From: a virus
Strand: one strand, 5' to 3'
IMG/VR virus record: IMGVR_UViG_3300042557_001775
Span: 8,743 to 72,742 of that record
DNA: 64,000 nucleotides
Positions 3 to 61,481 of this stretch are shown here, piece after piece. The position numbers and the translations under genes are program-made. The notes below the pieces were generated by a model. That model made no database searches and was not told the DNA's origin. It was given only the letters and a program-made list of their open reading frames with translations. Numbering within the stretch: the stretch's first letter is position 1; each line of letters opens with the position of its first letter.

Positions 3-797
3 GTCAAGGGCGGCCAAGGCGCAGGCAAGACCTACGCTGCGCGTCAGCATGGCATGACCGCCGGCTTTGACCGCTGCGTGGAGTTCGGTGTCCACTCCCA
101 GACCGAGGCCGTGGACTTCCTCGGTATGATGATGCCGAGCGGCGAGTGGCTCGACGGCCCGTTGACCGAGGCGTTCCGCGCTGCGGCTCTGGGACAGCTC
201 GTCTTGCTCATCATTGACGAGATCTATCGTGGTCAGAACGGCGCTCGCACACCGCTTCTCACGGCCACGTCTCCCGCCCGTCTGCCGAGCGGCGAGCGGG
301 TCTATCGTCTCCGCACGGGTCGCGCCATCGTCGATCCGGTGACTGGCGTTCACACCTCCGAAATCATCGAGGCTCCTTGCCAGAACCTCGCCATCGTTGC
401 CACGACCAACGTCGGGGCCGAGTTCAACGTCGATCCGGGCTGCCCCGCCGAGCGCGAGCGGTTCCGCCCTATCCACGTCGAGGTTGACGAGGTCAAGATC
501 CGCGCTGTCTGCGGCGCCATCGCCACGGCCAAGGGCTTCAGCCCCTCCGTGGTTGACCGCACACTCGCCTTCTACCGCGAGTGCAACGTCCTCAAGACGG
601 ACGGGTTCATCGAACTCTGCCCGTCCACCCGCATCCTCTCCGAGGCGATCGAATACGCCGACAGCGAGGCCAACGTGAAGTCGATGCTGTGCGAACTCGG
701 ATTGCACATCTGGGTCGGCACCACCATCGAAGGCAAGCCCGAGGAAGAGCAAGTCAAGCGCGTCACCACCGCACTCGACAAGGCCTTCGGGAAATAA
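3..797 (+). CDS. AAA+ ATPase, MoxR/CbbQ-like (5' truncated by window)
   Basis: Frame is open upstream of ATG 54 and gives Walker A GGQGAGKT at nt 9-32; Walker B LLIIDE; sensor-1 VATTN; Arg-finger-like ERF. Confidence 0.85.
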   Translation, partial: VKGGQGAGKTYAARQHGMTAGFDRCVEFGVHSQTEAVDFLGMMMPSGEWLDGPLTEAFRAAALGQLVLLIIDEIYRGQNGARTPLLTATSPARLPSGERVYRLRTGRAIVDPVTGVHTSEIIEAPCQNLAIVATTNVGAEFNVDPGCPAERERFRPIHVEVDEVKIRAVCGAIATAKGFSPSVVDRTLAFYRECNVLKTDGFIELCPSTRILSEAIEYADSEANVKSMLCELGLHIWVGTTIEGKPEEEQVKRVTTALDKAFGK

Positions 798-817
798 CCT
801 GACCACCTAACGCGTAA

Positions 818-845
818 CCGCCCTTTCCAATCTGGGAGGGGGCGG
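818..845 (+). other. GC-rich intergenic stem-loop
   Basis: CCGCCCTTTCCA-atc-TGGGAGGGGGCGG with G-U pairs and one bulge; no U tract. Confidence 0.45.
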
Positions 846-860
846 CCGCACCAAAACACC

Positions 861-1295
861 ATGTTTAATTCAAGTGGATTCATCGAGGGTATCAAATCCC
901 TCTACAATCAGGGCGTTCGTAAGATCGTCACTGATTTCAGCGGCGGAGGCGACTCCGGCGATATCAACTACATTGCGTTCTATAGCGCGGGCGGTTCGGA
1001 AAAGCTAACCGTCGAAGAGCCACTCGACTGGCGGGATGAGATGCACAACATCATCACCAGCGAGGTTCATTGCGACTGGTATAACAACGAGGGAGGCGGC
1101 GGTTCGATCGTCATCAATCTCGAAGTCAACCCGCCGACCATCGAGGTCAACTCGTATTGGAACGAGACTGTCTGCCGCGACGAGCCGACTGTGACTGACA
1201 CGCTGGATCCGACGCTCGTGCTGCCGAAGCCGGCCGTTCCAGAACACGCGGCTGTCCGCGCTGCCAAGAAGCTGCCGAAACGGGAGGCCAAGTAA
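861..1295 (+). CDS. DUF6878-like phage protein
   Basis: FSGGGDSG and DWYNNEGGGG motifs; directly upstream of a DUF6915-like gene. Confidence 0.65.
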   Translation: MFNSSGFIEGIKSLYNQGVRKIVTDFSGGGDSGDINYIAFYSAGGSEKLTVEEPLDWRDEMHNIITSEVHCDWYNNEGGGGSIVINLEVNPPTIEVNSYWNETVCRDEPTVTDTLDPTLVLPKPAVPEHAAVRAAKKLPKREAK

Positions 1296-2784: not shown

Positions 2785-2943
2785 ATGAAAGACAAAATCA
2801 CCAAACTCATCCACGACTACGAAAAGCGACTGAGGGAAAAGAACACTTTCCTTCAGAAAACGCACAACTCACACGTTGAAGGCATCGCCATTCAACTCGC
2901 AGAAACCCTAAAGGATTTGAAGCGGATCGTATCCGAACAATAG
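2785..2943 (+). CDS. hypothetical protein
   Basis: GAAAGGA RBS then ATG (MKDKITK...). Confidence 0.55.
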   Translation: MKDKITKLIHDYEKRLREKNTFLQKTHNSHVEGIAIQLAETLKDLKRIVSEQ

Positions 2944-2955
2944 AAAGGAACTACC

Positions 2956-3207
2956 ATGAGTAACTACGAAACCCTCAAAGAGGTAATCGGAAAGTATCAC
3001 GATGACGCGAAAAAGAAGCTCATCGAAAACAACGGCGAAATCGAAATCTTGCGAAAGAGATCAGCCGACCGCCACAGCAGATACCAAGTCGCGCCCAACG
3101 CAATGTTGGCCGAGGCGGACGAACGCTACAAGTTGGAGATCCGCGCCGAGTATTATCGCGGCATAGCTGACTTCTCGCGTGATCTGATTCGGAGGTTCAG
3201 CGTATGA
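2956..3207 (+). CDS. hypothetical protein
   Basis: GAAAGGA RBS. Confidence 0.6.
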   Translation: MSNYETLKEVIGKYHDDAKKKLIENNGEIEILRKRSADRHSRYQVAPNAMLAEADERYKLEIRAEYYRGIADFSRDLIRRFSV

Positions 3208-3368
3208 TCTCGTTTCAACAACAAGGCGAGTTACGATGGCTCCAGATCGGGCGCGGAAAGCCTCGCCTTGAGCTATATCTGCGTGGCTGGCATTGGGCGT
3301 GGCGCGACTACGGCTCTGTCCTCACAATCGCTATTCCCGGCCTCGTTCTTCGCTGGCTGCGGTATTGA
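3204..3368 (+). CDS. small Trp-rich hypothetical protein (54 aa, not in ORF track)
   Basis: GGAGG RBS and ATGA overlap; MISFQQQGELRWLQIGRG...LRWLRY*. Confidence 0.45.
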   Translation: MISFQQQGELRWLQIGRGKPRLELYLRGWHWAWRDYGSVLTIAIPGLVLRWLRY

Positions 3369-3396
3369 TTGAACGATTAATAACCTTGCATAGTCT
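3369..3396 (+). promoter_or_regulatory. possible sigma70-type promoter
   Basis: TTGAAC-N16-TAGTCT in an AT-rich gap. Confidence 0.3.
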
Positions 3397-3405
3397 TAAC
3401 CCTTA

Positions 3406-3717
3406 ATGGAGAAACAAACCATGAAATATCGTGAACACAACGGCCCTCTGCTGGCCCCCGAGAACTACATCCACCTCTGGAAAGCAGCGTCCAAACCCAA
3501 AGCGGAACCCAAGGCCTACGTCTGCCGTGACCTGTGGCGCCGCCTCACTACTGCCCTGCTGGCCGGAGCCAAGCTCCTGATGCTTGCAGCATGTAGCCCG
3601 AAGCCTGAATCCCCTGCCCTCGATCCGCTGGATCTGGTATGGGTTCAGCCCGAATCGGCCCGTGAGGAACGGGCCAAGACCCTTCCCAGAGTGGAAGGCA
3701 ATCCGTTTCAACTCTAA
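3406..3717 (+). CDS. hypothetical protein with hydrophobic segment and internal LAAC
   Basis: ORF fills the gap; alternative start at 3421. Confidence 0.5.
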   Translation: MEKQTMKYREHNGPLLAPENYIHLWKAASKPKAEPKAYVCRDLWRRLTTALLAGAKLLMLAACSPKPESPALDPLDLVWVQPESAREERAKTLPRVEGNPFQL

Positions 3718-3732
3718 CCCACTAATACTCAT

Positions 3733-3978
3733 ATGTTTCCAATCGAACAAACCAAACCACCTCGGGAGACTGTGATCCGAGTCAAAACCGAGAACTTCAT
3801 CAACAAGGCTGCCTGCAAAAAGTTCCTCATGGACTACGCGAAGGGCAACCGATACCACTCGTTTACCTGTTTTGACTCCGGTATTTACGACGAACTCAAC
3901 GGCCTCTTGCGCCGGTATATGCAGGGCATCGTGAAGCGCCAGCCGAGTAGCGGCCGAACCCTGAGATCGAACCGCTGA
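3733..3978 (+). CDS. hypothetical basic protein
   Basis: ORF packing. Confidence 0.55.
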   Translation: MFPIEQTKPPRETVIRVKTENFINKAACKKFLMDYAKGNRYHSFTCFDSGIYDELNGLLRRYMQGIVKRQPSSGRTLRSNR

Positions 3979-4069
3979 CCAGATTAGGGATTGCGGCGGA
4001 GTGGTTCTTCTCTGGTCATTATCATCCCCTGTCCAGTAACCGCATAAAAGCTGGACACTTTTCATAACC

Positions 4070-4459
4070 GTGCTACCTTCCTACCTCATGCAAGTGACGG
4101 CAACCGAGCGCACCTTCGGCCTGAAGGTCAGGGTTAAAGTCGGGGGCGACGAATCCTCGGCATGGCGGTCGGCGACTAAGTTCACCGACACATTAGCCAC
4201 CGAGGAGGAGAGCGGCGACGCAGCGGGCTGGGCCCTCCACAACGCTGACCGAGCCTTTATTTGGCTCGAGTCATGGCCCGAGTCGCGGAGCAAAGGGAAC
4301 AGCAAGAACCTGACCCACGAGTGCGTCCATGTCGCCATGAGCTTCCTGCGGGACCATGTCCGCGAAGACATCCGCAAAGCCGAAGAGACATGCTGCTACC
4401 TCGTGCAGCACTTGGTCGATGAAATCGAACACAAACTCAACCAGCGAAAAAAACAATGA
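4070..4459 (+). CDS. putative zincin-like metalloprotein
   Basis: LTHECVH (HExxH) followed by EETCCY. Confidence 0.6.
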   Translation: MLPSYLMQVTATERTFGLKVRVKVGGDESSAWRSATKFTDTLATEEESGDAAGWALHNADRAFIWLESWPESRSKGNSKNLTHECVHVAMSFLRDHVREDIRKAEETCCYLVQHLVDEIEHKLNQRKKQ

Positions 4460-4725
4460 ATAAAGAAACTTTATGGGGGCTTCTAATCCAGAACAACCCC
4501 CGCCTTACCGACGATCCTCATCTGACACCCGAGAGCGCACGGCGCTTTTTCGACATGGTTTGGAACACGGCCTACGGAGCCGGATGCAAGGACATGATCG
4601 ATCGCCAGCATGAGATTGCGGAGAACAGCGACGAGCCCACTCAGCAAGATTTTATCAAGTTCCTTGTGGACGCACTTGAACGACTTACCGATGAAAGCCC
4701 GAATCCGAAAAAAAAGAAACACTGA
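4456..4725 (+). CDS. hypothetical protein
   Basis: ATGA coupling. Confidence 0.55.
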   Translation: MNKETLWGLLIQNNPRLTDDPHLTPESARRFFDMVWNTAYGAGCKDMIDRQHEIAENSDEPTQQDFIKFLVDALERLTDESPNPKKKKH

Positions 4726-4918
4726 CCCCGCTCAGAGCGACGGCGAAGTCGCGTGGCGGCGACGTTACATCGAGCTTTATGACCAGCAGTGCAACGCCTA
4801 CGACGCGCACCGCTTGTGCCTTGAGGCTATCGACGCAAATGAATCCGAACGTGCTGCCGAGCTGCTTGAAGGGTTGGTCGCCGCTCACGAAGAAGAGGTT
4901 CGGCAATTGGTCAAATGA
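4691..4918 (+). CDS. hypothetical protein
   Basis: ATG at 4691, coiled-coil-like. Confidence 0.45.
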   Translation: MKARIRKKRNTDPAQSDGEVAWRRRYIELYDQQCNAYDAHRLCLEAIDANESERAAELLEGLVAAHEEEVRQLVK

Positions 4919-4954
4919 AACGCACTAAACTGCTAATTATAGATAAGTTGTTAC

Positions 4955-5221
4955 ATGGCTACTTATAAAGGCAAACAAGTCTCGCTGTATAAGCCCCGCA
5001 AAATGAAGGGGATTACTCCGGCTGGTAAAAAGAAATCTGTCTTCGTCCCCGGGAAAAAAGAGGGAACGGCAAAAGTCGTTCACTTTGGGGACTCCTCGAT
5101 GTCGGACTACACGCAGCACCGAGACAAGAAGCGCCGCGCCAATTTTCATTCGCGGCACAACTGCGCCGACAAGAAGGACAAAACCAAGGCGGGGTACTGG
5201 GCCTGTAAGAATTTATGGTGA
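4955..5221 (+). CDS. small basic viral protein (DUF5754-like)
   Basis: VHFGD..MSDYT.H.D..RR.NF..RH....K..AGYW....LW pattern. Confidence 0.65.
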   Translation: MATYKGKQVSLYKPRKMKGITPAGKKKSVFVPGKKEGTAKVVHFGDSSMSDYTQHRDKKRRANFHSRHNCADKKDKTKAGYWACKNLW

Positions 5222-5397
5222 ACTACCCCGATTGGATTTGCTCCGATTGCGGACGCAAGTATGGCAAGCGGCCCGAGGGGAATCCGCATGGAGCGACCTA
5301 TCACGAAGACACCTGCGGCGTTTGCGGCGAGGTGACCGAAGTGACCGAACCAAGAGACTACGGACATTTGAAGCATGACTGGCAAACAGCCAACTAG
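5215..5397 (+). CDS. small Zn-finger protein
   Basis: CSDCG ... CGVCG ... EPRDYG. Confidence 0.6.
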   Translation: MVNYPDWICSDCGRKYGKRPEGNPHGATYHEDTCGVCGEVTEVTEPRDYGHLKHDWQTAN

Positions 5398-5914
5398 ACA
5401 CTACCGGATCAAGGCCGATTGGTCCGCCATGCGTCTTGCTTATCTGCAAGGCGAGACGTTCCGCGCTATCTCCGCCACCTACGGGGTCAAAGAGAACACC
5501 ATCCGGAGCCGCGCTTCCCGCGAGAAGTGGCACGTTCCTCCGGCGCGGGTGATGACGACGCCCGAGGACAACGCCCTTTCCCTCCAGCGCGCCCATGAGA
5601 TTTGGCAGCAGCGCAAAGAGCGGGTCAAGGAAAGCGAATACAAGATCGCCGAGCGCATCTTGGCCCACGCTGAGACGATGCCGGAGGATCAACTCATCAA
5701 CAAGGCGGACAAGATCAAGATCGGGGTCGATATCGGCCGGCGTTCCGTCGGCATGGACGTCGAACAGAAGGACGTCAACGCGGTAAACATCGCCATTCTG
5801 GGAGACGTGGACGCCGAGTCTCTCAAGGCCATGAGCTACGACGCTCCGGCGGGACCGATGGCTCTTCCAGAGGTTCCCGAAACCAACTTCGGGGGCCCAG
5901 ACCAAGAACCATGA
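5375..5914 (+). CDS. probable terminase small subunit
   Basis: N-terminal HTH DW..MRLAY..G.TFRAISATYGVKENTIRSRASREKW, helical middle, beta-like C-terminal VNAVNIAIL. Confidence 0.55.
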   Translation: MTGKQPTRHYRIKADWSAMRLAYLQGETFRAISATYGVKENTIRSRASREKWHVPPARVMTTPEDNALSLQRAHEIWQQRKERVKESEYKIAERILAHAETMPEDQLINKADKIKIGVDIGRRSVGMDVEQKDVNAVNIAILGDVDAESLKAMSYDAPAGPMALPEVPETNFGGPDQEP

Positions 5915-6066
5915 AGCTCGTTCCGCTGCTGATCACGACCATCTGCTATTTGCTCACCGCCTGGGGCTTTTATCGAGACGGCCAGCTCGGCCTCTGTTGG
6001 GCCTTCCTCGGATATTCAATCGCAAATTTGGGATTCATCTACATCTGCATCTGGGGCAGCCCTTAA
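5911..6066 (+). CDS. small two-TM membrane protein (51 aa, not in ORF track)
   Basis: MKLVPLLITTICYLLTAWGFYRDGQLGLCWAFLGYSIANLGFIYICIWGSP*; ATGA overlap. Confidence 0.6.
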   Translation: MKLVPLLITTICYLLTAWGFYRDGQLGLCWAFLGYSIANLGFIYICIWGSP

Positions 6067-6070
6067 CTTT

Positions 6071-6394
6071 ATGTCTGAAAACAACACCGAAACCACTGAA
6101 ATCGCCAGCATCGAGAAGACGGAATATATTACGTCGCATCTGATGACGCTGGTGGGAAACTACCTCGCCAAGAAAGACCGCTCCGAGTTTGCCGAGTCCG
6201 ACGAATTGTTGGCCTCGCTCTTCTCGCAGCAAGCGATCCTGCTTATGGCCGTCAACGCGGTCCCGCACGACGTCCGTAAGGTTCTGGGAGAGGCCATCGA
6301 CGCAGAAGTCGTGAAGCTCGGCGAAGTTCCCGAGGAGCCCAAGCCGAAGGAAGCTCCGTCGAATCTAATCGTCCCAGACCGATTCGAGTCGTGA
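6071..6394 (+). CDS. hypothetical protein
   Basis: Last + strand gene before the convergence point. Confidence 0.6.
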   Translation: MSENNTETTEIASIEKTEYITSHLMTLVGNYLAKKDRSEFAESDELLASLFSQQAILLMAVNAVPHDVRKVLGEAIDAEVVKLGEVPEEPKPKEAPSNLIVPDRFES

Positions 6395-6415: not shown

Positions 6416-7102
6416 TTATCCTTCTTGGGACGCTGGCGTTTCTGGCTGCTGTTGCGAGCTACCAGAAGTATTGAGCCAGCACCAAGAGGGAAAGCGGTAA
6501 CCTTCGCTGGCCTTCTCGGCCACGTCTTGGGGCAGCCACACCTTTGCCTTGAGGTTGCAGCCGCACACGCCGCAGTTGGCAAGGCTGGCGTCCCGCACTG
6601 TTTGGCGCGCTCCGATGATTGAGAAGATCGTCGAGGCCAGATTGGTGCAGACGAAGCATCCACTCATCCCCACGTTCAGGGGACAGGACGCGCAGGTGAT
6701 TGCTCGTCGATTGGCGGTCTCTTCGTCTACCAATCCTTTCTCTCCCAGAGCGGCGCGGACCGCCCCCAGAAAGCGCATGACGTCGTCGATGTTGAATTCC
6801 TTTTTTAACCCGACATCGCTGAGCAATTCACTTGCCTCAGAGTCGCGAGCTGCGAGTTCCTCTTCGGACAGTAGCGGCTGGCATCGTCCCAGATCTTGCT
6901 TGGCGCAGGTGAAGTTCTCGATGTCCTGGCGCGGGTTGCCGGCGGGCAAATTGTTCGCCGCCCGGTGATCACTCACCTGCCCCACGACGAGGTCGAGGAT
7001 GTTGTTCTGGAACCGGCACTCGGTCTCCGGCTGGATGTATTGCCACCCCCCTCTGGGAAGAAGCGATGCGTCGTTCCATGCGTAGTTGGTCGCGGCGTTC
7101 AT
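6416..7102 (-). CDS. Cys-rich (Zn-binding) phage protein
   Basis: CASCP, CFVC, CGVCGCNLKAKV and CW motifs; coupled to the giant gene. Confidence 0.75.
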   Translation of the reverse strand: MNAATNYAWNDASLLPRGGWQYIQPETECRFQNNILDLVVGQVSDHRAANNLPAGNPRQDIENFTCAKQDLGRCQPLLSEEELAARDSEASELLSDVGLKKEFNIDDVMRFLGAVRAALGEKGLVDEETANRRAITCASCPLNVGMSGCFVCTNLASTIFSIIGARQTVRDASLANCGVCGCNLKAKVWLPQDVAEKASEGYRFPSWCWLNTSGSSQQQPETPASQEG

Positions 7103-10100
7103 AGATCCCGCTCCTGTGCTTGCCCGGCGGCCTGTTCGGCCTCTCGCGCCCGCTCTGGGGCGGCGTTCTTGAGTGACTCTTTGCTTGGCTGGAAGGGCCG
7201 GTAAATGCCGGAGGCGATGTCTTCAAGGTCGTCTTTGCCAATGCCGGTGGCTCGAAGGCGACTAATCGCCGCCGGTTCGGGGAGCCCTAGGCGCCGGGCC
7301 GCCATGTATCGACGACGCGCTTCTTGCGTAAGACGGTATTGGGCTTGGTCCGTCAGGTCGAAGGAGCCGGCCACGGCGCCAGGAGGCTGAGTACCCCGGG
7401 AGAGAAGAACGCGGTTGAAAAGAGAGGTGGCGTCGCGCTTGTTTCGCAGAAACTCTGAAGCACCGAAGCCTAAAGCTTGATCCAGATCCACTTGGCGGAT
7501 GCGCGTTCCGGTTACGATGGCACCGATCTCTTGCGCCGCGCTAAACTGCTGCCCCGAATCGGAGACAACTCCGGCAACACCTAGGCCGCCCCGGTAAATT
7601 GTTTTTGCGGTGCCCGGCACGAACGCGCCAGCCAAGTGGGCGCCGATGGCTTGGGCAATATTCGTCCCAGAGTCTTGCGGATTGTAGATCCGTCGGCCGC
7701 CAGCATCGACGTTGCGGAGGACGCTAGTCACGGCGCCGAAGACAATCTGTTCGCCGACGAACGGTTTCATCAATTCGCCGACCATCGCCACCCCGCCATC
7801 AGCGATGGCTTCCGGCATACTCTCAGCGCGACCAAAAGCGCGCATCATCGCGACGAAAGGTTTTTTGAAATACTCATGCCCGTCGAAAAACGAGATGTCG
7901 GCGTAGCTGATGGTATTTCCCGTGCGCCCAAACAAGAGTAGCTGGTTATTCTTCTGCCAGTCTGGAAGGAACTCGCGGAGGTCTTCTTCGTCTTCGGGGG
8001 TCATTCCGGCCATCGCGGCAATTCCGCCAGCCGCGACAGAAGGCACTGTCATTGCCAAACCGAATCCTCCGATCCGCCGGTAACCGAGACTCCGCAGCTC
8101 TGGGTTGCCTGACTTAATTTCGCTGGCCGCCAACCTGAGCGTATTAATCGCTGTGCGAACAACTTCGGTGGTGAAAGTAATAAAGGGGGCGACGACTAAG
8201 CCGGGTCCCCGCTTGAGTTCCTGCACCCACTGCGGGGCTTCGGAGTAGGTCCAATAGATCTCCCGGGAGATCTCGGCAGCTTTCTCATCGAGTTCCGCTT
8301 CGGCCATTTTCGGATACGCCCGGCGATAGTTTTCCCGCTCAGTGTAGAAGACAATGGCCCGCATAATATTGTCCGACATCGCGTAAGTCCCTTGGGCAAA
8401 GTCCCAGAGCTTACGGAACGGCTGCGTAATCTTGCGGGTTACTGCGTCTCCGGCTTGCACACGAGCGCCGCCCAGTTCGCGGTAGTCCTGCACGAGGTCG
8501 TCGATCATGTTGGCGGTCACCGATTCGCCGAACACGCGGAGGCGGATGAGCTTTTCGATTTCTTGCCGGGCTTTCTCGTATGCTTTGGGCCCAGATCCGT
8601 AATTCTTGAACGCTTCTTGGATCGCTGTCTGGTGCGCCAGCCCGATGGCTTTGCCCGAAAACGACCCGGGCATCAACGCGCCGGTCGAAAGAAGTTTGAG
8701 GTATCCGGCCAAGTAGTTGCGTGTTTGTGCGGCTGCCGAGCCGACAGTCGCCATTGCCATCGAGAGGCCCGTAGCTTTGGCGAAAAGCCGCGCCGCGTTT
8801 TCCGCATCGCTCTGCGGATACATTTTGTAAAGGGCCTCGACGATGTCGCGGTTGCCCCAGACTCCGGCCAGCGGGGAGAGACGGGCATTGGTCTCGTCCG
8901 AGATTTTGACGAATCCAGTCGGGGCTTCCCAGTCTGCGAAGGCGTCCCGGAAGGCGGTCTCTGCGGCGGCTCGGTCGGCAGTGCGGAGTATTTCCTCGAA
9001 GTTGGCACCGCGCACAACAAACTCGCCAGTATCTTCGTCTTGGCGCATTTCCGGCTGCGCCGAAAACCATCCTTCCGATAGGCCAAGTTCGCGCAGCTCA
9101 CGCAGGAATCGGTGGTTGTAGATGAGCGTGGACATCTTGAGGATCGTTTTTCCGTAGGCCGTTTCCGGATTGTCGTAGACGCCCCAGAGCGCTTGGATTT
9201 CGGGGGCAATCGTCCCCCGGCTCATAAAGATCGACAGATTTTTCTGCCCCATGACTCGGCCAGAGAGCGCTTCGAGCGTCGGGTCCTTCACGGACAACGC
9301 TGCTTCGAGGGCGGTTTCTACGTCGGCGGCGGCCACAGATCGGGTCGCCTGGCGCTGGGCTTCGGCCTCAGAGATGGTCGTCCCAGTCTTGGTAGCGGTG
9401 TTCAGGATACGTTCCTTAGCCTTCTCAATAAGCTGCTTCTTTAGGAAGCCACGGGCGCCGGCCATGACCTTCAGATTCTTCCTCACGCGGTCAGCCCACT
9501 TGGGGTTGTCGAAGATGGCGTAGCTTCGGTTGAGGTAGATACCCAGCGTCTCGTCGATGGCGATTTCCAAGTCTCCGGAAACGAGCCCTTCGGATTTAAG
9601 CCGGCGCTGAAGCACGTTGATATGATCTCGCATCTGTGTCACGAGAACGCGCACATCCCGGGGAAGCGACTTCAAGGCCGCTGTCTGGCGCTCGCGGAAC
9701 TTCATCCGATTCTCCCGCCGATAGCGGTCTTTCAGCTCGGCGGCTGCTTCGGGATCAGTAAGGCGAACTCGCATCATCTCCGCCATCTGTGCTTCGGTGA
9801 AGGGGTTGTCTAGATTACCCAGAGCCGTGGTGATCTTGCGCGGGTCGATATTGCGGTCACGAACAGCGCGGACGAGGAGCCTGATGTTGGCGTCGGCCCG
9901 GCTGGCTTCGGCTTTGATGCCAGCTCGCGAGCTTTGGAACTTGTCGGTGCCGCGAGCGTCCATGAGGCGATCAACGGCAGAGATAAACTTGCCTTTGACG
10001 TAAGTGCCGCCGGTCGGGGTCTTGCTGACCTCGTCCCGGAATACCCGCTCGAACTTCCCACCGAGGGAGTCGCTATACCGAATATTCGGGATTTCGTTTA

Positions 10101-13100
10101 GCTCTTGTTCCGTCATCGAGTCCGGGTCTCGCTTGATCGTCACTTCTGGTGCGGGCGCACGCTTTTGCATCCGCTTTTCAACGGCGGCTTGGTTTTTCTC
10201 GTTGAACAAATCCCAGTAAACCCCCGAGTCCATCTGCCCACCGCTCGGCGGCCGGAAGTCGTCACCCTTCGTCTCCCCGTCGATAACGACGGGTTCCGCA
10301 CGACCGGTCTTTTGGGCCCAAGCAACGAATTCACTACGGCTCATGGCTTGAACCGCTTTATCGATCTCTGGGTCTGTTTTGCGCGTAGGTTTTGGCGCCG
10401 GTGTTCCCTTGGGCTCTGGGACGACTTTAAGTCGAGGCGACTCTCCCGTTGTGTCTGCGTCTGTTATGTCTGTATCGCTAACCTCGGGGGCAGCTTCTGG
10501 ATCGGGGTCGGGGGCAGGTGCTTTTTTCTTTTTCTTCGGCGGCTCTTTTGGCGGCTCTGGGTCCGGCTCGGGTTTTGGCTCAACAGGCGTCGGCGGCTCA
10601 GGTTTGGGCTCGATAGCCGGTTCAGCCGGTTGCCGCGCTTTGGCGGCGGCCAACTCCGAATAAAGCAGATTCAGTTCAGCTTCGATGTCGGCCATCGGAG
10701 TGAATGTGTTTCTTCCCAGCTTCTGGGCCGCTTCTCTGACACGAGGGTCTTCGGGCTTATTCGTATTCCGCCGCCGCTGTGTTTTGAAGGCGTGTAGTTC
10801 ATCAAGTCCCTCTAGGATTCCTTCCAGCGCGCGGAGATCCGACTCTTTCTTTGATATATCCTGTTGGATTTCATCGACCGACCTACCCGCTTCGGCGGCT
10901 TCGGCTTCGGCTGCTTGCTCCAGAAGAATTACTTCTGTACCCCGGGGCAAAACGTTGGTTCCGGCTACCCCGCTGGTCGGGGCGAAGCCCTGGCGATAGC
11001 GGAGCACTCGGCCGCTGGGGAGCCTGATTTCTCTTCGAGCTTCGGCTTGAGCTTGTTGAGCTTGTTGGCGACGGGTTTCACGGACAGCCGGCCATTCGGC
11101 GGCTAAGCGATTGCGGTCTTCGGAAGTGCCCGCTAAGTCCTGCGCTTCGAGCTGCTCCTCGATGTATTGCGCCTGGGCCACCGCTGCTTCCATTTCGTCG
11201 ATCATGCGACTGCGGATCAACTCTGGGGCTGCGTCGCCTTCCACGCTGGAGAAGTTCAGGCGCCATGAATCACTGAAGCCTTCAGCAAGAGGCGAGGAGC
11301 TATCGACTTGAACCCCGGTGATGAGGGCCACGATGGAGTTCCAGACATCTTTGAGCGCCGCGACGAAGTCTCCTTTGAACGTCCCCTTCCCGAATCCCAG
11401 AGTGGCAAGCTGCTTGGCGACCTCTGGATTGTGGGTCACCTCTACCACGAATTCTTCGAGGCTGGTCAGCGAGATGAGCGCCTGGTTGGATTCGGAGGCG
11501 GCGATTTCCTGAAGCTGATCGGAGATAATTTTGACTTCCGCGTCGGTCGGTTTTGCCGGGACGTCGAGGCCCCGGGAGCGGCCAGCCGCGATGATCGACT
11601 GCCGCCGGAATCCTTCCAGTCGCTGAATGGCGGCGCGCTCGGCGGAGTTCAGTTCAACAAAGCCGTTGAGCTTGGAATTGACGACAACGTGGGAAAGCTC
11701 GTGGAGAAGCGTGTCGATTGCGCCGCCCTCGCGGTTGTCGTGGATCGCGTTGGTGTTGAGATAAATCGAGTAGGCGCCGTCGCTTTCAGCGGCGCGGCCA
11801 GACCAAGTGACGGCATTCGACTTGATGATGTCGTCTTCGACTTCGCTTCGAGCTGCGTCGATCTGGGCGTCCGCTTTGTCCGGGTCGGCGTCAAGCGTGA
11901 TCTCCTTTTTCTTGCTTCCCAGAGTGAGGGTGATCTTGCCGTCTTTGACTTTGACCCGGCGGTCAATCTCTTCCTCGGTGAGCGGCTGGCTGTTGAAGTT
12001 GCGGCCAAAGCCTGCGATCTGGAGGGAGACGTTATCGTTCCACCCCAAACGCGGCCCCAGTTTAACAAATGCGGCGGCGATACTGCGGGCCTTGAGGCTC
12101 TGGCTTTGGTCGTTGGCGACAGTCTTGAGGAAGGTCTCGATGTCTTTGAACGCGCCCGATTGAATGAGCTTCCGGATGTTTTCGCGTTTGATTTTTAGCT
12201 TGGCGGCGTTGGATCCTCGGCGGCGAGCCGCTTGTGTCGCAGCCATGCCGGCGAGAAGCTCCGTGGCGCTTTTGGTCAGCAGCAGGTCCGCGAACGGCTG
12301 CGACGTCTGACCTATCACATTGCCGCCCGCCGCCAGCGTCGATTCCGTGGCGCGGCCTTCGGTCTCGATCGCCGTGACGATGCGGTTGATTTGCTCGTCG
12401 GTATAACCTTCGAGGTCTTTGCTGGTTAGGCCAGACCAGGAGGCGACGTAGGCTCGGGCTGCTCTGGGAGCGACTGTTCGGACGGTGCGGTTGAGAAGAC
12501 GAGTTCGTGGGCGAGATCCTCGAATCGGTTGAGCGGCGCCACTTGAAACGCTTCCGGATCGGTCAGCATCAGGTCCGCTAGGGCTCCGTAATCCCCTTTC
12601 GCCAGCCGGATCAGGATCGGGCCCCCCAAGCGATTGGCTAACTCGCGGTGCTCCTCCTGCGACAGCACCATCGCCAGCAGCCGACAAGCCACGTCCGGAA
12701 ATGCGGCCTGCATTTCCGCCACGCTTGGCCCATTCGAGGATTTCTCGGTTTTCTTTTTGTTGGAGGAGTCGCTCGGCTGTTGCACTGGGCTTCCAGTCAG
12801 CGGCTTTCTTTCCGATGAGGTTGTTTTCTGGTATTCCATAGAGTGTATTGTAGCTGACGTCGCCTTGGATGTAGCGGATAATTTCTTGCAGTCGTGGGTC
12901 TAAGTTAGAGAAGTCAACGCGCCCCGTCGCGGTTACGAGTTCTTCGAGGCGAGCAATTTTGCCCGGGTCTTTGTACCAATAGCGATCCTGGGACGGGTCC
13001 CATTCCAGCCCGAAAGTTCCAAGAAAAAGCTTTTGATCTTCAGTGCTGAGTTTGCTCATCAGCTTTTTGTCTTCGCCGACGAGCCTTAACAGTTCAGGAC

Positions 13101-18735: not shown

Positions 18736-18758
18736 TGCTAAAAGTAGCGGTTGTTAGG

Positions 18759-40184: not shown

Positions 40185-40206
40185 ACATTTTGCGGTGTTC
40201 AGGTTA

Positions 40207-46473: not shown

Positions 46474-46487
46474 GGGTGGTCAGGTTA

Positions 46488-47523: not shown

Positions 47524-47547
47524 GAGGTTAGTCGGTTATGATAAACG

Positions 47548-49560: not shown

Positions 49561-49577
49561 CTTACGTCAAATTTCCC

Positions 49578-50834
49578 ATGAGCAAATCCAGACTTATTGA
49601 GACCAGCCCCGGTGTTCACGAACTCGAACTGAACGGCTCGCGGGTCAAAATCCGTGAGACCAAAAACGGCAACTACAAGTTTTTTCGGCTCGACTGGAAA
49701 GTCGGTAGCCGCGCATTCCGCCGCGCCTTTTCCTCCTCCGAAAAAGCCATCGACGAGGCCGAGCGCATTGTACGGGATCTTGCCCGGGCCGAAGGGGAAA
49801 AAACAACCGTGCGTAGCGAGGATATCGTCTACTACCGCGAATGCGCCCGAAAGCTTGGCGGCGTTCCCCTGCACGAAGCCGTCGAGTTCTACTGCAAGTT
49901 CCACCGCGTCGGCGCTCCCCGCAAAACCATCGCCGATCTCGCCCAAGAACTCGAAGTCGCCACCCGCGCCCGCGAAGCATCCCGGCGGCATCTCGAAACA
50001 ACCATTCATCTCAACAAGGTATGGACAAAATGGACGGGCGCAATGACGCCCTCCGAAATTACCCCCGCGCTCATCGAGCGAAAGTTCTCCGAGAGCGACT
50101 ACTCGGCCCACACGAAAAAGAATTTGCTGCGGGGTTACCGGGCCCTGGAGCTGTTCGCGATCCGCCAAAAATATCTGCCGCGTGAATTCGAGAGCGTAGC
50201 CGAGCGGGTGACCATACCCAAAACGCGCAACGCCACGCCAGCCGTGTTCACTCCGGAAGATCTGATGCGGCTCTTCGTTGCCGCGCAGCCGAAACATTTG
50301 TCCTACATCGCCATGATGGCGTTTGCTGGCGCCCGCCGGGCGGAGTTCGAGCGCATGACCCGCGACCACATTTCGCTCGATGACAAAGTCGCCATCATCA
50401 ACGCGGAAATTGCCAAGAAGGGTTCCCGGCGCGTTTTGGAATTACCGGAAAACCTTTGCGAGTGGCTGCGCGTGGCCGAACTTCCCGAGAAAGGTCTCCT
50501 CACGTCACGCAAAAGCATCGAGCGGCTCTCATCCAATAAAGCGGCGCTGAAAGAAGTGGGGCTGGACGCATCAAAGTGGGAGCAGAATGTGCTCCGCCAC
50601 TCCTTTTGCTCCTACCACTTGGCCTTACACCGCAACGCGGCCACCACTTCAGAGCAGGCCGGCAACTCACCTCAAATGCTCCGCGAGCACTACAAATCAC
50701 TCGTGACCCCCGCCGCCGCCAAAGAATGGTTCGGAATCACTCCCGAGAAGGTTAATCAATTCGCGAGTGCGAATAATCTTGTCGGGTTAATAAAATGGTC
50801 TTGCCGAAAGAAAGGAGAGGTGTCAATCTCGTAA
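49578..50834 (+). CDS. int: tyrosine recombinase (phage integrase)
   Basis: GARRAE (R), AKK (K), NVLRHSF, AGNS, EHY (Y). Confidence 0.9.
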   Translation: MSKSRLIETSPGVHELELNGSRVKIRETKNGNYKFFRLDWKVGSRAFRRAFSSSEKAIDEAERIVRDLARAEGEKTTVRSEDIVYYRECARKLGGVPLHEAVEFYCKFHRVGAPRKTIADLAQELEVATRAREASRRHLETTIHLNKVWTKWTGAMTPSEITPALIERKFSESDYSAHTKKNLLRGYRALELFAIRQKYLPREFESVAERVTIPKTRNATPAVFTPEDLMRLFVAAQPKHLSYIAMMAFAGARRAEFERMTRDHISLDDKVAIINAEIAKKGSRRVLELPENLCEWLRVAELPEKGLLTSRKSIERLSSNKAALKEVGLDASKWEQNVLRHSFCSYHLALHRNAATTSEQAGNSPQMLREHYKSLVTPAAAKEWFGITPEKVNQFASANNLVGLIKWSCRKKGEVSIS

Positions 50835-50871
50835 CAACCTTGAAACCCCAATCAAGAAAGGAAAACACAAC

Positions 50872-51162
50872 ATGCCCAATCAACTGAAACCAGGAACGCG
50901 CCGTCTCAGCTATGTCGAGACGCGCCAAGCAGCCAAAGCTTTGGATATCTTAGCTGCGGCCAAAAGCACCAACGTATCGGCCCTCATTCGTGAGGCCACC
51001 GAGGACTACCTGAAAAAGGTAGATAAAGACAACTCCGTCCGAAAGCTCGCCCTGCAAATCGTGACTGAACTTCCCGACGACGCAGAAGAACGAGCGGAAG
51101 CGGATTTAGACCCGAAAACAATGGAACAGCTTACCGCCGTAATGAAAAAGATTCGGCGTTAA
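50872..51162 (+). CDS. ribbon-helix-helix regulator (candidate repressor)
   Basis: GAAAGGA RBS; RRLSYVE beta strand then ALDILAAAKSTNVSALIREA. Confidence 0.65.
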   Translation: MPNQLKPGTRRLSYVETRQAAKALDILAAAKSTNVSALIREATEDYLKKVDKDNSVRKLALQIVTELPDDAEERAEADLDPKTMEQLTAVMKKIRR

Positions 51163-51165
51163 CGA

Positions 51166-51183
51166 TTGGCACGATCGTGCTAA
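51166..51183. promoter_or_regulatory. palindromic operator candidate
   Basis: TTGGCACGATCGTGCTAA (one mismatch), sharing a half-site with the attP repeats. Confidence 0.5.
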
Positions 51184-51291
51184 TTTTTGGCGGAATCGTC
51201 CGCGCATTTTGGCGCATCAGAGTCTTATCTACGTCACAACCCCACCACCTAAAACAAACGACTAAAACTCAAAACCAATATACCAGAAGTC

Positions 51292-51510
51292 ATGGTCATC
51301 AACCTCACCAAAGCCCAAGAAGAGGCGCTTAAACGCCTATCGAACCAAGTCAACCTCCCTCCGGACAAAATCGCCGAGTTATTTGTGCAGGACGGAATTT
51401 CATCGTATGCTTATACCAACGATGGACACTCCTCTTTGCGAGAATCTCTTGCCGAGTCTTCAGAAGCTTCGCAACCCGAAGCTGATCCGGAGCTTTGCCA
51501 GCGACGCTGA
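51292..51510 (+). CDS. small RHH-like protein
   Basis: MVINLTKAQEEALKRLS...PDKIAELFV. Confidence 0.5.
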   Translation: MVINLTKAQEEALKRLSNQVNLPPDKIAELFVQDGISSYAYTNDGHSSLRESLAESSEASQPEADPELCQRR

Positions 51511-51610
51511 ATTAGAAGACGCACTCATCAAGGCTGCGGAGGCTACTGGCTACTCCATGAGCGAGATTATCCGGCAAGCTCTCCGCAAGTCCTTGATCGA
51601 AGGTTCTTAA
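51422..51610 (+). CDS. small RHH/CopG-like protein
   Basis: IRSFASD.ELEDAL.KAA..TG.SMSEIIRQAL. Confidence 0.55.
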   Translation: MDTPLCENLLPSLQKLRNPKLIRSFASDAELEDALIKAAEATGYSMSEIIRQALRKSLIEGS

Positions 51611-51621
51611 CCTCACAACCC

Positions 51622-55757: not shown

Positions 55758-55993
55758 TCTGCCATGAGTTCCGCATCCCGATCTCGGTTCACACGCCTAT
55801 GGGCGAAGGTGACGCGATTCTGTTCGTCGATTACGGGCTGGCGGTTAACTCGATGTGGGTCGTGCGGCTCCATCATTCCGGCGTCGTCAAACACTTCTTC
55901 TCCGAAGACGTCCGTGTTTACGGAAACCCGATGGATGGGCGGGGATGGGACGCTGAAATTCCGAAGGATTGGAAAACTTTGAAGGGTTCTTAA
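55754..55993 (+). CDS. hypothetical phage protein
   Basis: TPMGEG.A.LF.DYG...N..WVV pattern. Confidence 0.6.
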   Translation: MICHEFRIPISVHTPMGEGDAILFVDYGLAVNSMWVVRLHHSGVVKHFFSEDVRVYGNPMDGRGWDAEIPKDWKTLKGS

Positions 55994-56046
55994 CCCAACA
56001 ACCGAGGCAGCGGCACTGCCAAACAACAAACAAAACTAAACATCGT

Positions 56047-56805
56047 ATGAGCAAAATATCGTTTGAAGACCTCGACAAGGCCCCAGCCGAGTCGAACACC
56101 GAAACCGCAGTCGTCGTGAAACCGGACTTGGCCGTGGCCGTCCCAATCGCAGAACCGGCCAAAGGACTCTTGGGAGAGTGGACCGCGCAAGACACGCGCC
56201 TGCCCCGCTTGAACTTGGTCAACAAGTCCGGCGACCTCGCCAACACGTTCGTCCCAGGGACTTACGTCATCAATAAAGAGCACCAGCTCAACCAACTCTC
56301 GGCCGACTCCCGCGAACGGAGCAACCCGATCAACGTCATCGTCGCGACGATGGCGAAACAGTATCAGGAAAACATTCCGTTCGATCAGCGCGAGTCCACT
56401 CCGGCTCGCCTCTTCAACAAAGCCTCCGAAGTCATGGCGGCCGCCGGATCAATCAGCCGCATGAGCGGCGAAGGGAAATTCTCCGAAATCGCGCACATCG
56501 AGCTTTTCCTCGAAGAGCCGGAGGGGTTGACCGAAGACGCCCAGGCGCTCTTCTACTACACGTTCGGGGGCAAAAAATACACCCGCGTCATGTGGACTGT
56601 CAGCGGCACCGCTTTCGGCGCAGTCGCCGTCACGATCGCCAGTGCGCTGCGGGGACACTTGTCTTCGACCGGACTGACCGGAGGTCAATGGCTCCTCGGG
56701 TCGAACCTGATCAAAGGCCAAAAGAATAGCTGGTGGCAGCCGAGCATCCGCACCAACGGACTCGTGGCCCCAGAGGTCACCAAAGAAATCGAGGGCAACC
56801 TCTAA
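56047..56805 (+). CDS. putative single-stranded DNA-binding protein
   Basis: D.RLPRLNLV motif; lies between nuclease and polA and is followed by a strong hairpin. Confidence 0.55.
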   Translation: MSKISFEDLDKAPAESNTETAVVVKPDLAVAVPIAEPAKGLLGEWTAQDTRLPRLNLVNKSGDLANTFVPGTYVINKEHQLNQLSADSRERSNPINVIVATMAKQYQENIPFDQRESTPARLFNKASEVMAAAGSISRMSGEGKFSEIAHIELFLEEPEGLTEDAQALFYYTFGGKKYTRVMWTVSGTAFGAVAVTIASALRGHLSSTGLTGGQWLLGSNLIKGQKNSWWQPSIRTNGLVAPEVTKEIEGNL

Positions 56806-59902: not shown

Positions 59903-60114
59903 CCAATAAGTTCCTAGAAACCTTTCAACAAGTCACCGGATGGAAAACTCCAGAGCGGTTCGGCCGCGAACACGATGGCTTCGTCACCATCGAGGAAAAC
60001 GCCCGCTCTCACAACCATGACGCGTTCTTTTGGGACGCCGACATGGGCCATGAGCGTTTGCAAACAATGTGGATGGACGGCCTTTACTTTGTGCGTAGGT
60101 TGTTAACCAGATAA
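59899..60114 (+). CDS. hypothetical protein
   Basis: ATGA overlap with polA. Confidence 0.5.
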   Translation: MTNKFLETFQQVTGWKTPERFGREHDGFVTIEENARSHNHDAFFWDADMGHERLQTMWMDGLYFVRRLLTR

Positions 60115-60118
60115 CCTT

Positions 60119-61456
60119 ATGCGATACCTCTCGGTTTGCAGCGGCATCGAAGCCGCAAGCGTGGCGTGGGAACCCCTTGGCTGGTCCCCCGCAGCGTTCT
60201 CTGAAATTGAGCCATTTCCGGCCGCCGTCCTCGCCCACCATTGGCCGGAAGTCCCTAACTTGGGCGACATGAACAACTATGAAAAATGGAACAACTTGGA
60301 CGCAATCGACCTTTTGGCCGGAGGAACGCCATGCCAGTCCTTTAGTGTCGCCGGGCTGCGAAAAGGACTCAAAGACCCCCGTGGAGGACTCATGCTTACC
60401 TACCTTGAAATCGCTCGGCGTTTCCGGCCTCGATGGGTTGTCTGGGAGAACGTCCCCGGCGTCCTGTCTAGCGACGGAGGACGGGATTTTGGTTCCTTCC
60501 TCGGGGCGTTGGGGGAGCTGGGGTATGGCTGGGCCTACCGCGTCTTGGACGCTCAATGGGTCCGAACACACCGGCACCCCCGCGCCGTCCCGCAGCGCAG
60601 GCGACGTGTCTTCGTTGTCGGATGTTTTGGAGACCGGACCCGTGCCGCCAAGGTTCTTTTTGAGTCCCAAAGCGTGTGCAGGGATTCTGCGGAGAGCCGA
60701 AAAAAGAAAGAAGACGTTGCCGGAACATTTAAGGCTCGCGCTCGAAGCGGGGGCTGGTGTCAAGACGTCGATCTCGCCAGCTCTGGATACATGCAAGTCG
60801 CCGGAGCCCTCGATACCGAGTGTGGCGGAAACAAACTGACCCACCAGACCTTGCTCAACGGACATGCGCTGGCCGTGGGTGCGCTCTCGGCCGATGACGG
60901 CGAACAGGGGTATACAACCGTCCAAGCAGCAGCGTCGGGGATGCTGGTTCCGGCCCGAATGGTCGCCTTCGGCGAATACGTCGAAGACGGAACCGCCTCG
61001 GCCATGAAAGCCCGAGACTACAAAGACGCGACCGACTTGGTTGCTGTGGATGCGTATAACCAGACTGTAAGCAGCACGTCGCAAGCCATCTCGTCTTCCG
61101 CGAGCGACATCCACCACACCGGAGGAGCTATTGTTCCGGCGGTCGCGGTACAGGACGTGAGCGACCGCGACAAGAAACAGAACGGACGTGGATGGAGCGA
61201 GGACGGAACTAGCTACACGCTCGACGCGGCGGCGACGCAAGGTGTCGCTCGGGGCCTAGCAGTCAGACGGCTTACTCCGACTGAATGTGAAAGGCTCCAA
61301 GGATTTCCCGATAACCACACCTTGATCCCGTGGAAGAAGAAACCGGCGGATCAATGCCCCGACGGCCCACGCTACAAAGCCTTGGGCAACTCGATGGCCG
61401 TGAACTGCATGGAATGGATCGGCCAACGCATCGACTTCTACGACAAGCAATCATAA
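60119..61456 (+). CDS. DNA (cytosine-5) methyltransferase
   Basis: SVCSGIEA, GGTPCQSFS, WENV, PQRRRR, RRLTPTECERLQGFPD, ALGNS. Confidence 0.92.
   Translation: MRYLSVCSGIEAASVAWEPLGWSPAAFSEIEPFPAAVLAHHWPEVPNLGDMNNYEKWNNLDAIDLLAGGTPCQSFSVAGLRKGLKDPRGGLMLTYLEIARRFRPRWVVWENVPGVLSSDGGRDFGSFLGALGELGYGWAYRVLDAQWVRTHRHPRAVPQRRRRVFVVGCFGDRTRAAKVLFESQSVCRDSAESRKKKEDVAGTFKARARSGGWCQDVDLASSGYMQVAGALDTECGGNKLTHQTLLNGHALAVGALSADDGEQGYTTVQAAASGMLVPARMVAFGEYVEDGTASAMKARDYKDATDLVAVDAYNQTVSSTSQAISSSASDIHHTGGAIVPAVAVQDVSDRDKKQNGRGWSEDGTSYTLDAAATQGVARGLAVRRLTPTECERLQGFPDNHTLIPWKKKPADQCPDGPRYKALGNSMAVNCMEWIGQRIDFYDKQS
60279..60839 (+). CDS. overprinted +1-frame ORF inside the C5-MTase (M.EcoHK31I beta-like)
   Basis: 186-aa ORF containing SLSDVLE...RFFLSPKACAGILRRAEKR...LP..L..AL. 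Confidence 0.55.
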   Translation: MKNGTTWTQSTFWPEERHASPLVSPGCEKDSKTPVEDSCLPTLKSLGVSGLDGLSGRTSPASCLATEDGILVPSSGRWGSWGMAGPTASWTLNGSEHTGTPAPSRSAGDVSSLSDVLETGPVPPRFFLSPKACAGILRRAEKRKKTLPEHLRLALEAGAGVKTSISPALDTCKSPEPSIPSVAETN

Positions 61457-61481
61457 CCCAACAACCCACAAGGAGAATGAA

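Follow-up and report, generated by a model that had tools for sequence, protein, structure and literature searches.

Short repeated elements placed before genes have been described in several groups of bacterial viruses. They set the background for the one considered here, AACC-N4-HACC (where H is A, C or T), which recurs at gene junctions of the phage recorded in IMG/VR as IMGVR_UViG_3300042557_001775. The DNA analysed is a stretch of 64,000 nucleotides (nt), bases 8743-72742 of a virus record of 72,742 bp, referred to below as the window. The late promoters of phage T4, TATAAATA, are read by gp55. In phiEco32, the middle and late promoters are described as having AATGTA centred at -11.5 and are linked to gp36 (PMC12276001). 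The jumbo phage AR9 has its own multisubunit polymerase; the late promoters of its non-virion RNA polymerase (RNAP) are given as AACA-N6-T-A/G(+1), and its untranslated regions as 26-491 nt long (PMC5312081). N4-like phages are described as having hairpin promoters for early genes (and, in LUZ7, for middle genes), AT-rich promoters for the N4 middle genes, which are read by RNAPII, and sigma-70-like late promoters (PMC9163698, PMC4496689). Promoters of leaderless genes, in which the -10 box adjoins the open reading frame (ORF), are reported from Deinococcus-Thermus and Actinomycetota (PMC12340547, PMC4633059).

Oriented repeats are described as well. The stoperators of Cluster A mycobacteriophages (e.g., L5) are more than 20 asymmetric 13-mers, which lie in short intergenic spaces in the direction of transcription and are bound by the immunity repressor (PMC9283540). 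The start-associated sequences (SAS) of Cluster K are asymmetric 13-mers that occur in one orientation 3-7 bp before starts, sometimes including the upstream stop codon. In the published account, they contain AGGAG, the core of the Shine-Dalgarno (SD) sequence, about half of them are preceded by inverted repeats, and they belong to non-structural genes only (PMC3203893).

In the present phage, AACC-N4-HACC is clearly a real and functional motif that is conserved in its clade. It stands before some twenty genes here and in related phages. Our preferred reading, to which we give a probability of about 0.5, is that the element would be a clade-specific core promoter with an initiator, serving most transcription units of the phage and of the uncultured clade to which it belongs.

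The window contains 23 matches where 4.57 ± 2.26 are expected, and none of 100 shuffles reaches 23. The whole 72.6-kb genome contains 33, with 32 on the coding strand (3.73 ± 1.81 expected from 500-nt block shuffles) and one on the other strand (1.90 expected). Enrichment over a composition-matched intergenic background, which had been set as a test beforehand, was found: 85 upstream windows of 60 nt (5,355 nt) hold 16 copies, as compared to 0.35 ± 0.58 in per-window dinucleotide shuffles (the largest number in 1000 being 3), and the opposite strand of these windows holds none. The distance between the two boxes is strict. Across the genome, 33 copies have four intervening bases, while two, three, five and six bases are found 3, 7, 7 and 1 times, respectively, and G at the H position is not enriched (3 vs. 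2.3 expected). Gene junctions account for 15 of the 23 window matches. The other eight lie inside genes (3750, 9796, 34204, 37121, 51853, 54513 and 56975, plus an antisense match at 18680), which is near the chance expectation. The flanks also separate the two sets, since T stands at position -4 in 14 of the 15 junction copies vs. two of the eight in-gene copies.

An earlier, sequence-only reading of this DNA had listed the element, and its coordinates are correct: all 15 exact copies are present and both of its variants can be read directly. It had also pointed to one longer sequence that occurs twice. This sequence, AATAACCTGACCACC, has exactly two occurrences (0 expected), one at 793-807 (+) and one at 46475-46489 (-). 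TATAAT or TATCAT does stand directly 5' of late copies, namely those at 23713, 46475 and 47526. Two further statements hold in a narrower form. The element was said always to lie on the coding strand, which is true of 22 of the 23 window matches, the antisense match at 18680 being the exception. About seven copies were said to end 0-2 nt before a start codon; we count four canonical ones (23713, 46475, 47526 and 60105) and two variants.

Alignment of the 32 coding-strand copies gives the full element of this phage as T(C/A)AT-AACC-N4-H-ACC. T is found at -4 in 24 of the 32, C or A at -3, A at -2 in 20 and T at -1 in 19. With these flanks the upstream half is AT-rich and -10-like, in a genome of 57% GC. 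Within N4, A is preferred at the third base and C at the fourth, and the -35 region of the same 32 copies shows no signal. AACC is directly repeated 8 bp apart within the element. The boxes consist of A and C only, and because they lack G, pairing with the anti-SD sequence is impossible. The element is, thus, not itself an SD sequence. A separate AGGAG or AAAGGA appears when the leader is at least 15 nt long (in the 15-, 24- and 26-nt leaders), and none is present in the short ones. In the replication module, the sequence GGTT-NTT-AACC is found at three or four copies, and AACC can there pair with GGTT to give a 4-5-bp stem with a 3-nt loop.

Seven whole or large IMG/VR records were taken for comparison. 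The form shared by the clade is (G)TAATAAC-N3-R-Y-A (R, purine; Y, pyrimidine), often followed by ACC, and the final A of RYA corresponds to the H position of AACC-N4-HACC. The motif as first defined is therefore real, although it is the local form of a wider clade motif, which extends 4 nt further upstream. In the genome designated G000, ATAACC is the top 6-mer in upstream windows (13 windows vs. 0.78 expected). Words containing TAATAA, AATAAC or ATAAC are among the most enriched in five of the six relatives first fetched. In G003, SD-like words come first and ATAACC is fifth. The exact AACC-N4-HACC is enriched in the nearest subclade (G006, G007, G008 and G010) and partly in G002 and G003, but not in G001, G004 and G005.

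In G008, whose terminase is about 99% identical, a comparison of pattern-match lists (not of aligned sequences) shows 19 of 22 junction copies retained as exact matches in collinear places; 4 of these 19 differ only in N4. Of the remaining copies, five out of 11 are kept. In G006 (78%), the element stands at the giant gene, at the CobT-like gene, after the AAA ATPase gene, at the methyltransferase gene and at the primase gene, with different N4 and flanks. At the junction following the terminase gene, an element of this kind is present in most of the 44 related loci shown, with the downstream gene varying, and several unrelated sequence groups have TTGAC(N) 16-18 nt 5' of TAATAA, TCATAA or TCTTAA. 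G003 has an arrangement of its own at several - strand gene starts around 41.6-48.3 kb, consisting of a GTTCC-N4-GGAAC inverted repeat, an AACC-rich stretch, AAAGGA, ATAACC and ATG.

The distance between the 12-mer and the start codon varies. In the window, it is 1, 1, 2, 2, 7, 9, 10, 13, 15, 24, 26, 42, 43 and 53 nt, and the range is 0-53 nt when variants are included. This means that the ATG does not position the element, and indeed the ACC box is in register with ATAAC and not with ATG. In relatives, the distance was surveyed for 679 unique [TAG][AC]ATAAC sites in all fetched DNA, using the first ATG that opens at least 60 codons. There is a peak at 5-6 bases from ATAAC to ATG (33 sites), the first base of the ATG there being the final A of RYA or the base after it, and a second peak at 9-10 bases (31 sites), where mostly RYA-ACC or RYA-AAC(C) is followed by ATG at once. 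Seven sites fall at 3-4 bases and six at 7-8 bases, which form the troughs. Five genes of G001 read ATAAC-N3-AC-ATG. In the interval from ATAAC to ATG, SD-like tetramers are found at 0 of 77 sites when the interval is 0-6 bases, at 2 of 52 (7-12 bases), at 3 of 52 (13-18 bases) and at 14 of 44 (19-30 bases). In 56 of 141 sites, the TAA of the element is the stop codon of the upstream ORF.

From these patterns in the sequence, we infer that transcription starts at the element and that an enzyme reads it. The upstream part, T(C/A)ATAAC in this phage and (G)TAATAAC in relatives, would act as an AT-rich, -10-like sequence, and the downstream part would be a start-site box at a rigid distance from it. 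The predicted +1 is the H of AACC-N4-H-ACC, which matches the last A of RYA in the clade form; for copies with C or T at H, it would be the invariant A that comes next. ACC would then be the first transcribed bases. Three types of message are predicted. Relatives such as G001 would make leaderless mRNAs or mRNAs with a 1-nt leader. The present phage would make mRNAs with 4-6-nt leaders and no SD, of the approximate form 5'-(A)ACC-N0-2-AUG, from the portal gene and from the genes at 23711, 47523 and 60119. Where the leader is long, for example at the capsid gene, the mRNAs would be led by an SD. The ATG would, thus, be as near to the 5' end as the conserved bases permit, and only long leaders would need an SD.

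The promoter reading is favoured by the fixed AT-rich half, by the 0-53-nt distance to the ATG and by the presence of an SD only in long leaders. The relatives favour it further, since their ATG lies at the predicted +1, one base later or right after ACC. The geometry, an AT-rich hexamer (TAATAA or TCATAA) followed by six bases and a pyrimidine-purine step, suits a multisubunit polymerase. As in compact promoters, a single conserved element lies near the predicted -10 position in many copies and without a -35 element, the +1 being the one deduced above. The context of individual copies argues in the same direction. The portal copy has a -35 sequence, GTGACA, with a 16-nt spacer to TATAAT, giving 11 of 12 sigma-70-type matches; it is the only copy with a canonical -35, and together with TTGAC(N) at post-terminase junctions it supports the promoter reading. 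So does the clade-type copy that faces the terminase gene in a divergent region. The early region outside the window (genome 1642-8170) has, before early genes, eight copies of a perfect or near-perfect 20-bp palindrome, GAATCAGAA-nn-TTCTGATTC. Four of the eight abut or overlap the element (genome positions 3112-6232), and this is the usual layout of a promoter with its operator. They may serve as operators for a dimeric regulator, or else as hairpin promoters. In G006 and G003, other inverted repeats stand in the same relation to their copies of the element; in G006, one such repeat abuts a copy.

A number of observations weigh against this reading. As a class, the element is not a canonical sigma-70 promoter: a sigma-70 scan picks out only the portal copy among the 15 junction copies of the window, and its totals show no excess over shuffles (7 vs. 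8.0 and 4 vs. 7.5). The hexamer ending before AACC has A at position 2 in only nine of 32 copies, which is low, and T at position 6 in 19 of 32; G004 conserves G at position 2. A -35-like hexamer is weakly enriched over 109 clade sites. Rigid spacing and conserved bases after the predicted +1 are odd for bacterial promoters and would suit a protein-binding site equally well. The peaks in the distance to ATG could come from any site of fixed length packed between a stop and a start. The promoter reading has no explanation for G003, which places ATAACC between SD and ATG, and the copy at 796 is separated from the gene that follows by a GC hairpin. An integrase-bearing phage would have to keep at least 20 promoters silent in the lysogen, which a repressor site explains directly.

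The search for the enzyme belongs on the same side of the balance, since no phage sigma factor or RNAP was found with Pfam or PHROGs among about 80 ORFs. A six-frame scan with Sigma70_r2 found nothing, while its control matched in 11 of 14 genomes; a very divergent sigma factor would escape it. A six-frame scan with PF00940 gave no match, but its control matched nowhere, and the Pfam scans of ORFs gave none either. The only helix-turn-helix (HTH) resembling region 4 is at the N-terminus of a small-terminase-like protein of 179 amino acids (aa), with E = 0.002, below the cut-off. For the 3878-aa virion protein there is no Pfam family and no PDB match, either alone or as a seven-sequence profile, and its only PHROG match, at the C-terminus, is to 'virion structural protein'. 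Two early proteins were considered as candidate polymerases and rejected: the 558-aa protein looks CobT/vWA-like (a lead only), and the 449-aa protein is an AAA ATPase.

Given that no sigma factor or RNAP is recognisable, the reader of the element would be the host RNAP, with a phage factor or an unusual host sigma, or else an unrecognised phage enzyme. The presence of an integrase would make sense of promoters that need a phage-made factor. It is tempting to go further and suppose that machinery beyond the reach of sequence searches reads the element, either as a new initiation factor for the host RNAP or as a polymerase activity hidden in a phage protein without annotation, that both ATAAC and the transcribed ACC are required, that translation is near-leaderless, and that the palindromes gate the promoter in lysogeny. 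This combination lies on the unlikely side.

Next in rank to the promoter reading is an oriented, asymmetric regulator site, possibly for one of the conserved ribbon-helix-helix (RHH) proteins, that would work as an operator or stoperator across the genome, keeping lytic genes off in the lysogen or setting when they are expressed. The stoperator picture as described (PMC9283540) is matched by more than 20 asymmetric copies, which lie in short intergenic spaces and in one orientation relative to transcription. The rigid spacing and the direct repeat of AACC also speak for it, the element often fills the entire gap between stop and start, and five copies lie in about 1 kb around the RHH genes, next to an integrase gene that is adjoined by the genes of the RHH (RHH_1) protein and of a 96-aa protein. 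We nevertheless consider a regulator site unlikely, because the eight 20-bp palindromes beside the element would be better sites for a dimeric RHH protein, and because an operator has no need of an AT-rich, -10-like half or of the sigma-70-type contexts at the portal and post-terminase junctions, leaving these unexplained. Immunity sites usually diverge along with their repressor, and the upstream half of the element hardly varies among phages in which the RHH-gene products share only 43-75% identity. No homologue of the monomeric (L5-type) stoperator repressor was found, and no search aimed at one was made. More doubtful still, and third in rank, is a start-associated 5' sequence that works at the RNA level through SD-independent translation or factor binding, comparable to the SAS and extended SAS (ESAS). 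The four canonical copies and two variants that end 0-2 nt before an ATG without SD would suit it, as would the variants at 849 and 32321, which keep their ACC boxes at the ATG and lack the ATAAC half, and the several G003 genes with ATAACC between SD and ATG. Pairing of palindromes with the element is closely parallel to SAS with inverted repeats, as far as these are described (PMC3203893). ACC is present within -6 to -1 of 11 out of 56 ATG starts (3.75 expected), but this excess comes mostly from the element itself, so that there is no general pre-start feature beyond it. Against it, a distance of 9-53 nt separates nine of the window's 15 junction copies from the ATG, and three of these nine precede an SD-like motif of their own. 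The boxes have no G to pair with the anti-SD, whereas SAS contain AGGAG. The register of the ACC box, which follows ATAAC rather than ATG, decides its place in the ranking.

The sequence-only reading had offered three possibilities: a DNA site for an RHH protein, a transcription-start element giving near-leaderless mRNAs, and an RNA-level site for translation initiation or processing. The transcription-start element is the one that we favour, and the variable distance is at odds with a general role in starting translation. Of the RHH proteins named as candidates, one has the Pfam RHH_1 domain, and the 96-aa protein encoded from 50872 has no family match. Processing, in which an endonuclease would cut polycistronic transcripts and release mRNAs with short leaders, is very unlikely. 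It would account for the position of the element at coding-strand gene junctions at a variable distance from the next ATG, and some toxin endoribonucleases cut at ACA, which occurs in the start-site box of many relatives. However, no nuclease candidate is linked to the element, searches of Rfam at gathering thresholds gave no match, and neither the AT-rich half nor the -35 contexts of the portal and several post-terminase groups would be explained. Hardly credible is a by-product of composition, that is, generic A/C-rich sequence before starts. A and C do abound on the coding strand, and the eight in-gene matches are near their chance number, but the enrichment counts contradict this account, as do the strict spacing, the conserved flanks that separate junction from in-gene copies, and the retention of the element in relatives.

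The individual copies are described here in window order. AACCTGACCACC at 796-807 (+) follows AAAT; the TAA at 795-797 ends the 449-aa AAA ATPase gene, and 53 nt separate the element from the ATG at 861. The interval 808-860 (+) holds the GC-rich hairpin, which has no T tract, and the relative G006 has the same layout of element and GC hairpin with another hairpin sequence. The variant CACCAAAACACC at 849-860 (+) directly abuts the same ATG at 861; it has no ATAAC half, and its membership is uncertain. A clade-type copy without the ACC box, TAATAACCTTGCA, lies at 3378-3390 (+), 15 nt before the ATG at 3406; the clade-type motif has four matches vs. 0.58 expected. TCAT-AACCGTGCTACC at 4066-4077 (+) is 10 nt before the ATG at 4088, and the G004 orthologue starts at the same ATG.

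Copies on the - strand include those of the structural genes. TCAT-AACCTAACAACC at 18749-18760 (-) is 13 nt before the ATG at 18735 of the 3878-aa gene, and its TAA is the stop of a 342-aa gene; the corresponding copy in G006 differs in N4 and flanks. TATAAT-AACCTGCTAACC at 23713-23724 (-) ends 1 nt before the ATG at 23711, with no SD. At 32321-32333 (-), 2 nt before the ATG at 32318, is the N5 variant AACCTCGCAAACC, which has on its 5' side the hairpin that comes after the capsid gene. This variant is without the T(C/A)AT half, and its membership is also uncertain. TCAT-AACCACAAAACC at 33702-33713 (-) precedes the ATG at 33675 of the 430-aa putative capsid protein by 26 nt, with AGGAG in the leader. 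TAAT-AACCTGAACACC at 40194-40205 (-) is 9 nt before the ATG at 40184 of a 58-aa gene that heads the lysis cluster. TATAAT-AACCTGACCACC at 46475-46486 (-) lies 1 nt before the ATG at 46473 of the 780-aa putative portal protein, and TATCAT-AACCGACTAACC at 47526-47537 (-), just downstream of the large terminase gene, is 2 nt before the ATG at 47523. The clade-type TCATAACCTTGCA at 49523-49535 (-) is located between the divergent integrase and terminase genes and faces the terminase ATG at 49323, about 200 nt away.

On the + strand, AACCTTGAAACC at 50836-50847 (+) is found just past the integrase stop, 24 nt before the ATG at 50872 of the 96-aa protein, and its leader has AAAGGA. Two copies precede the ATG at 51292. 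AACCCCACCACC at 51238-51249 (+) is preceded by TCAC, is 42 nt away and lies 3' of a terminator-like hairpin (51162-51178), while AACCAATATACC at 51273-51284 (+) is preceded by TCAA and is 7 nt away. In GGTTCTT-AACCTCACAACC at 51609-51620 (+), the TAA ends the RHH gene (Pfam RHH_1), and the start that follows is uncertain. GGTTCTT-AACCCAACAACC at 55992-56003 (+) includes the stop TAA of a 118-aa ORF and is 43 nt from the ATG at 56047 of a 252-aa protein of the clade core; this start position is taken from the Atlas record. GGTTGTT-AACCAGATAACC at 60105-60116 (+) ends 2 nt before the ATG at 60119 of a 445-aa DNA methyltransferase, with no SD. The TAA of TCAT-AACCCAACAACC at 61455-61466 (+) is the stop of the methyltransferase gene, and 15 nt of leader with AGGAG separate it from the ATG at 61482.

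The ends of the record overlap by exactly 127 bp, which indicates a circular assembly of 72,615 bp. Genes on the + strand run from window position 49542 or thereabouts, through the start of the record, to window position 6394, and genes on the - strand occupy window positions 6416 to 49323. The - strand block encodes the large terminase (phrog_2), tail-like proteins, an M15 endolysin and the 3878-aa virion protein, as well as the putative portal and capsid proteins, neither of which has a family match. The gene of the 3878-aa protein extends over 7099-18735 (-). In seven phages, this protein has a conserved N-terminal part (residues about 80-410), a block at about 2290-2500 that includes an invariant HExxH at 2345-2349, and a conserved last third (2900-3878); the middle is highly variable and the central third poorly conserved.

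The + strand block includes a tyrosine integrase (Pfam PF00589, 27.7 bits against a cut-off of 27.1; phrog_1, E = 3.9e-20), whose gene, at 49542-50834 (+), and that of the large terminase diverge. If genes are called here simply as the longest ORFs, false ORFs appear on the opposite strand. Near the integrase gene are those of the RHH protein (51383-51610), the 96-aa protein (50872-51162) and an Xis-like HTH protein. The phage is probably temperate, unlike the N4-like phages. Homologues of the RHH (RHH_1) gene product and of the 96-aa protein are present in all six relatives compared. The block also encodes a helicase-nuclease, a family-A DNA polymerase, two methyltransferases, a primase and many small ORFans, and the core 252-aa protein (56047-56805) matched only clusters of hypothetical proteins. 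A pair of + strand genes encodes the 558-aa, possibly CobT/vWA-like protein (genome 6346-8022) and the 449-aa AAA ATPase (genome 8190 to window 797), which has a weak CobS-like PHROG match. The pair has homologues in three of the six relatives compared. No tRNA genes were found. A consensus terminator scan upstream of the copies was not informative, with 40 vs. 26.3 ± 5.7 in one half and 18 vs. 25.4 ± 6.4 in the other.

An SD and the element are both missing from many structural genes, for example those starting at 19787, 21736, 27099, 27782 and 29680 (-). At these genes, A/T-rich sequence comes before the start codon, which touches or overlaps the stop of the gene in front, a pattern that suggests coupled translation or a host only weakly dependent on SD sequences. 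At 37776-37795 (-), TGTATATT stands 5 nt before the ATG at 37775; it looks like an ordinary extended -10 box for a leaderless start, of a type other than the AACC element.

At least 104 stretches in IMG/VR encode a related terminase. Cultured phages matched the terminase at only 22.5-25.1% identity, and neither megablast nor tblastn against the phage collection found a match to the terminase-portal DNA or to the portal protein. Two scans of GTDB genomes, with the terminase alone and with a 12-sequence alignment, found no prophage relative. In the collections searched, no cultured relative is on record, and the element gives a testable handle on gene switching in this widespread uncultured group of phages of about 70 kb. 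It marks probable starts of transcription units and corrects some of the predicted start codons, such as those at 4088 and 56047. The promoter reading predicts that the host translates messages with leaders of 0-6 nt and no SD, and if the promoter function is true, the element would be a very short portable promoter. Since the genome has no recognisable sigma factor or RNAP, the element also points to a reader that the sequence searches did not recognise.

The sequence-only reading knew of no described equivalent of the element. This is too strong, as stoperators, SAS and ESAS, and compact -35-less phage promoters are all published. The kind of element is already known in print, and the present one is a new case. 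Like SAS and ESAS, it is an asymmetric repeat in one orientation near starts, sometimes with the upstream stop, and a subset of copies is paired with inverted repeats that differ in sequence between phages (four of the eight palindromes here). Unlike them, it has no G in its boxes, lies 0-53 nt from the start and also serves structural genes. With stoperators it shares more than 20 asymmetric intergenic sites of about 13 bp, oriented with transcription in a phage that has an integrase; it differs in sequence, in its -10-like half and in its fixed relation to the leaderless starts of relatives. The phage resembles the N4-like group in its genome of about 72 kb, in having a gene for a giant virion protein (about 3,900 aa) and in inverted repeats before early genes. 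The promoter motifs of N4 and LUZ7 differ from the element, and an N4-like identity was rejected: searches found no virion RNAP, no RNAPII and no structural families of the N4 type, and the phage has an integrase.

The remaining comparisons are with promoters. The AR9 late promoter is likewise a short two-part motif with an AAC-containing box, a fixed spacer and a pyrimidine-purine start, but the AAC box in the present phage is 3 nt nearer to the predicted start, and no multisubunit polymerase genes were found. Leaderless-gene promoters resemble the situation in the relatives, where the ATG is at the predicted +1 or one base on and there is no SD; in contrast, the upstream half of the element is not TANNNT, and the messages of this phage would have a conserved 4-6-nt leader. 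The T4 and phiEco32 promoters are similar in having one short element near -10, no conserved -35, many copies and a phage-specific sequence. The present phage differs from these in having no recognisable sigma gene among the scanned ORFs and six frames. Its element also runs, at a rigid distance, into a conserved H-ACC start box, and it serves the early, replication and structural modules alike.

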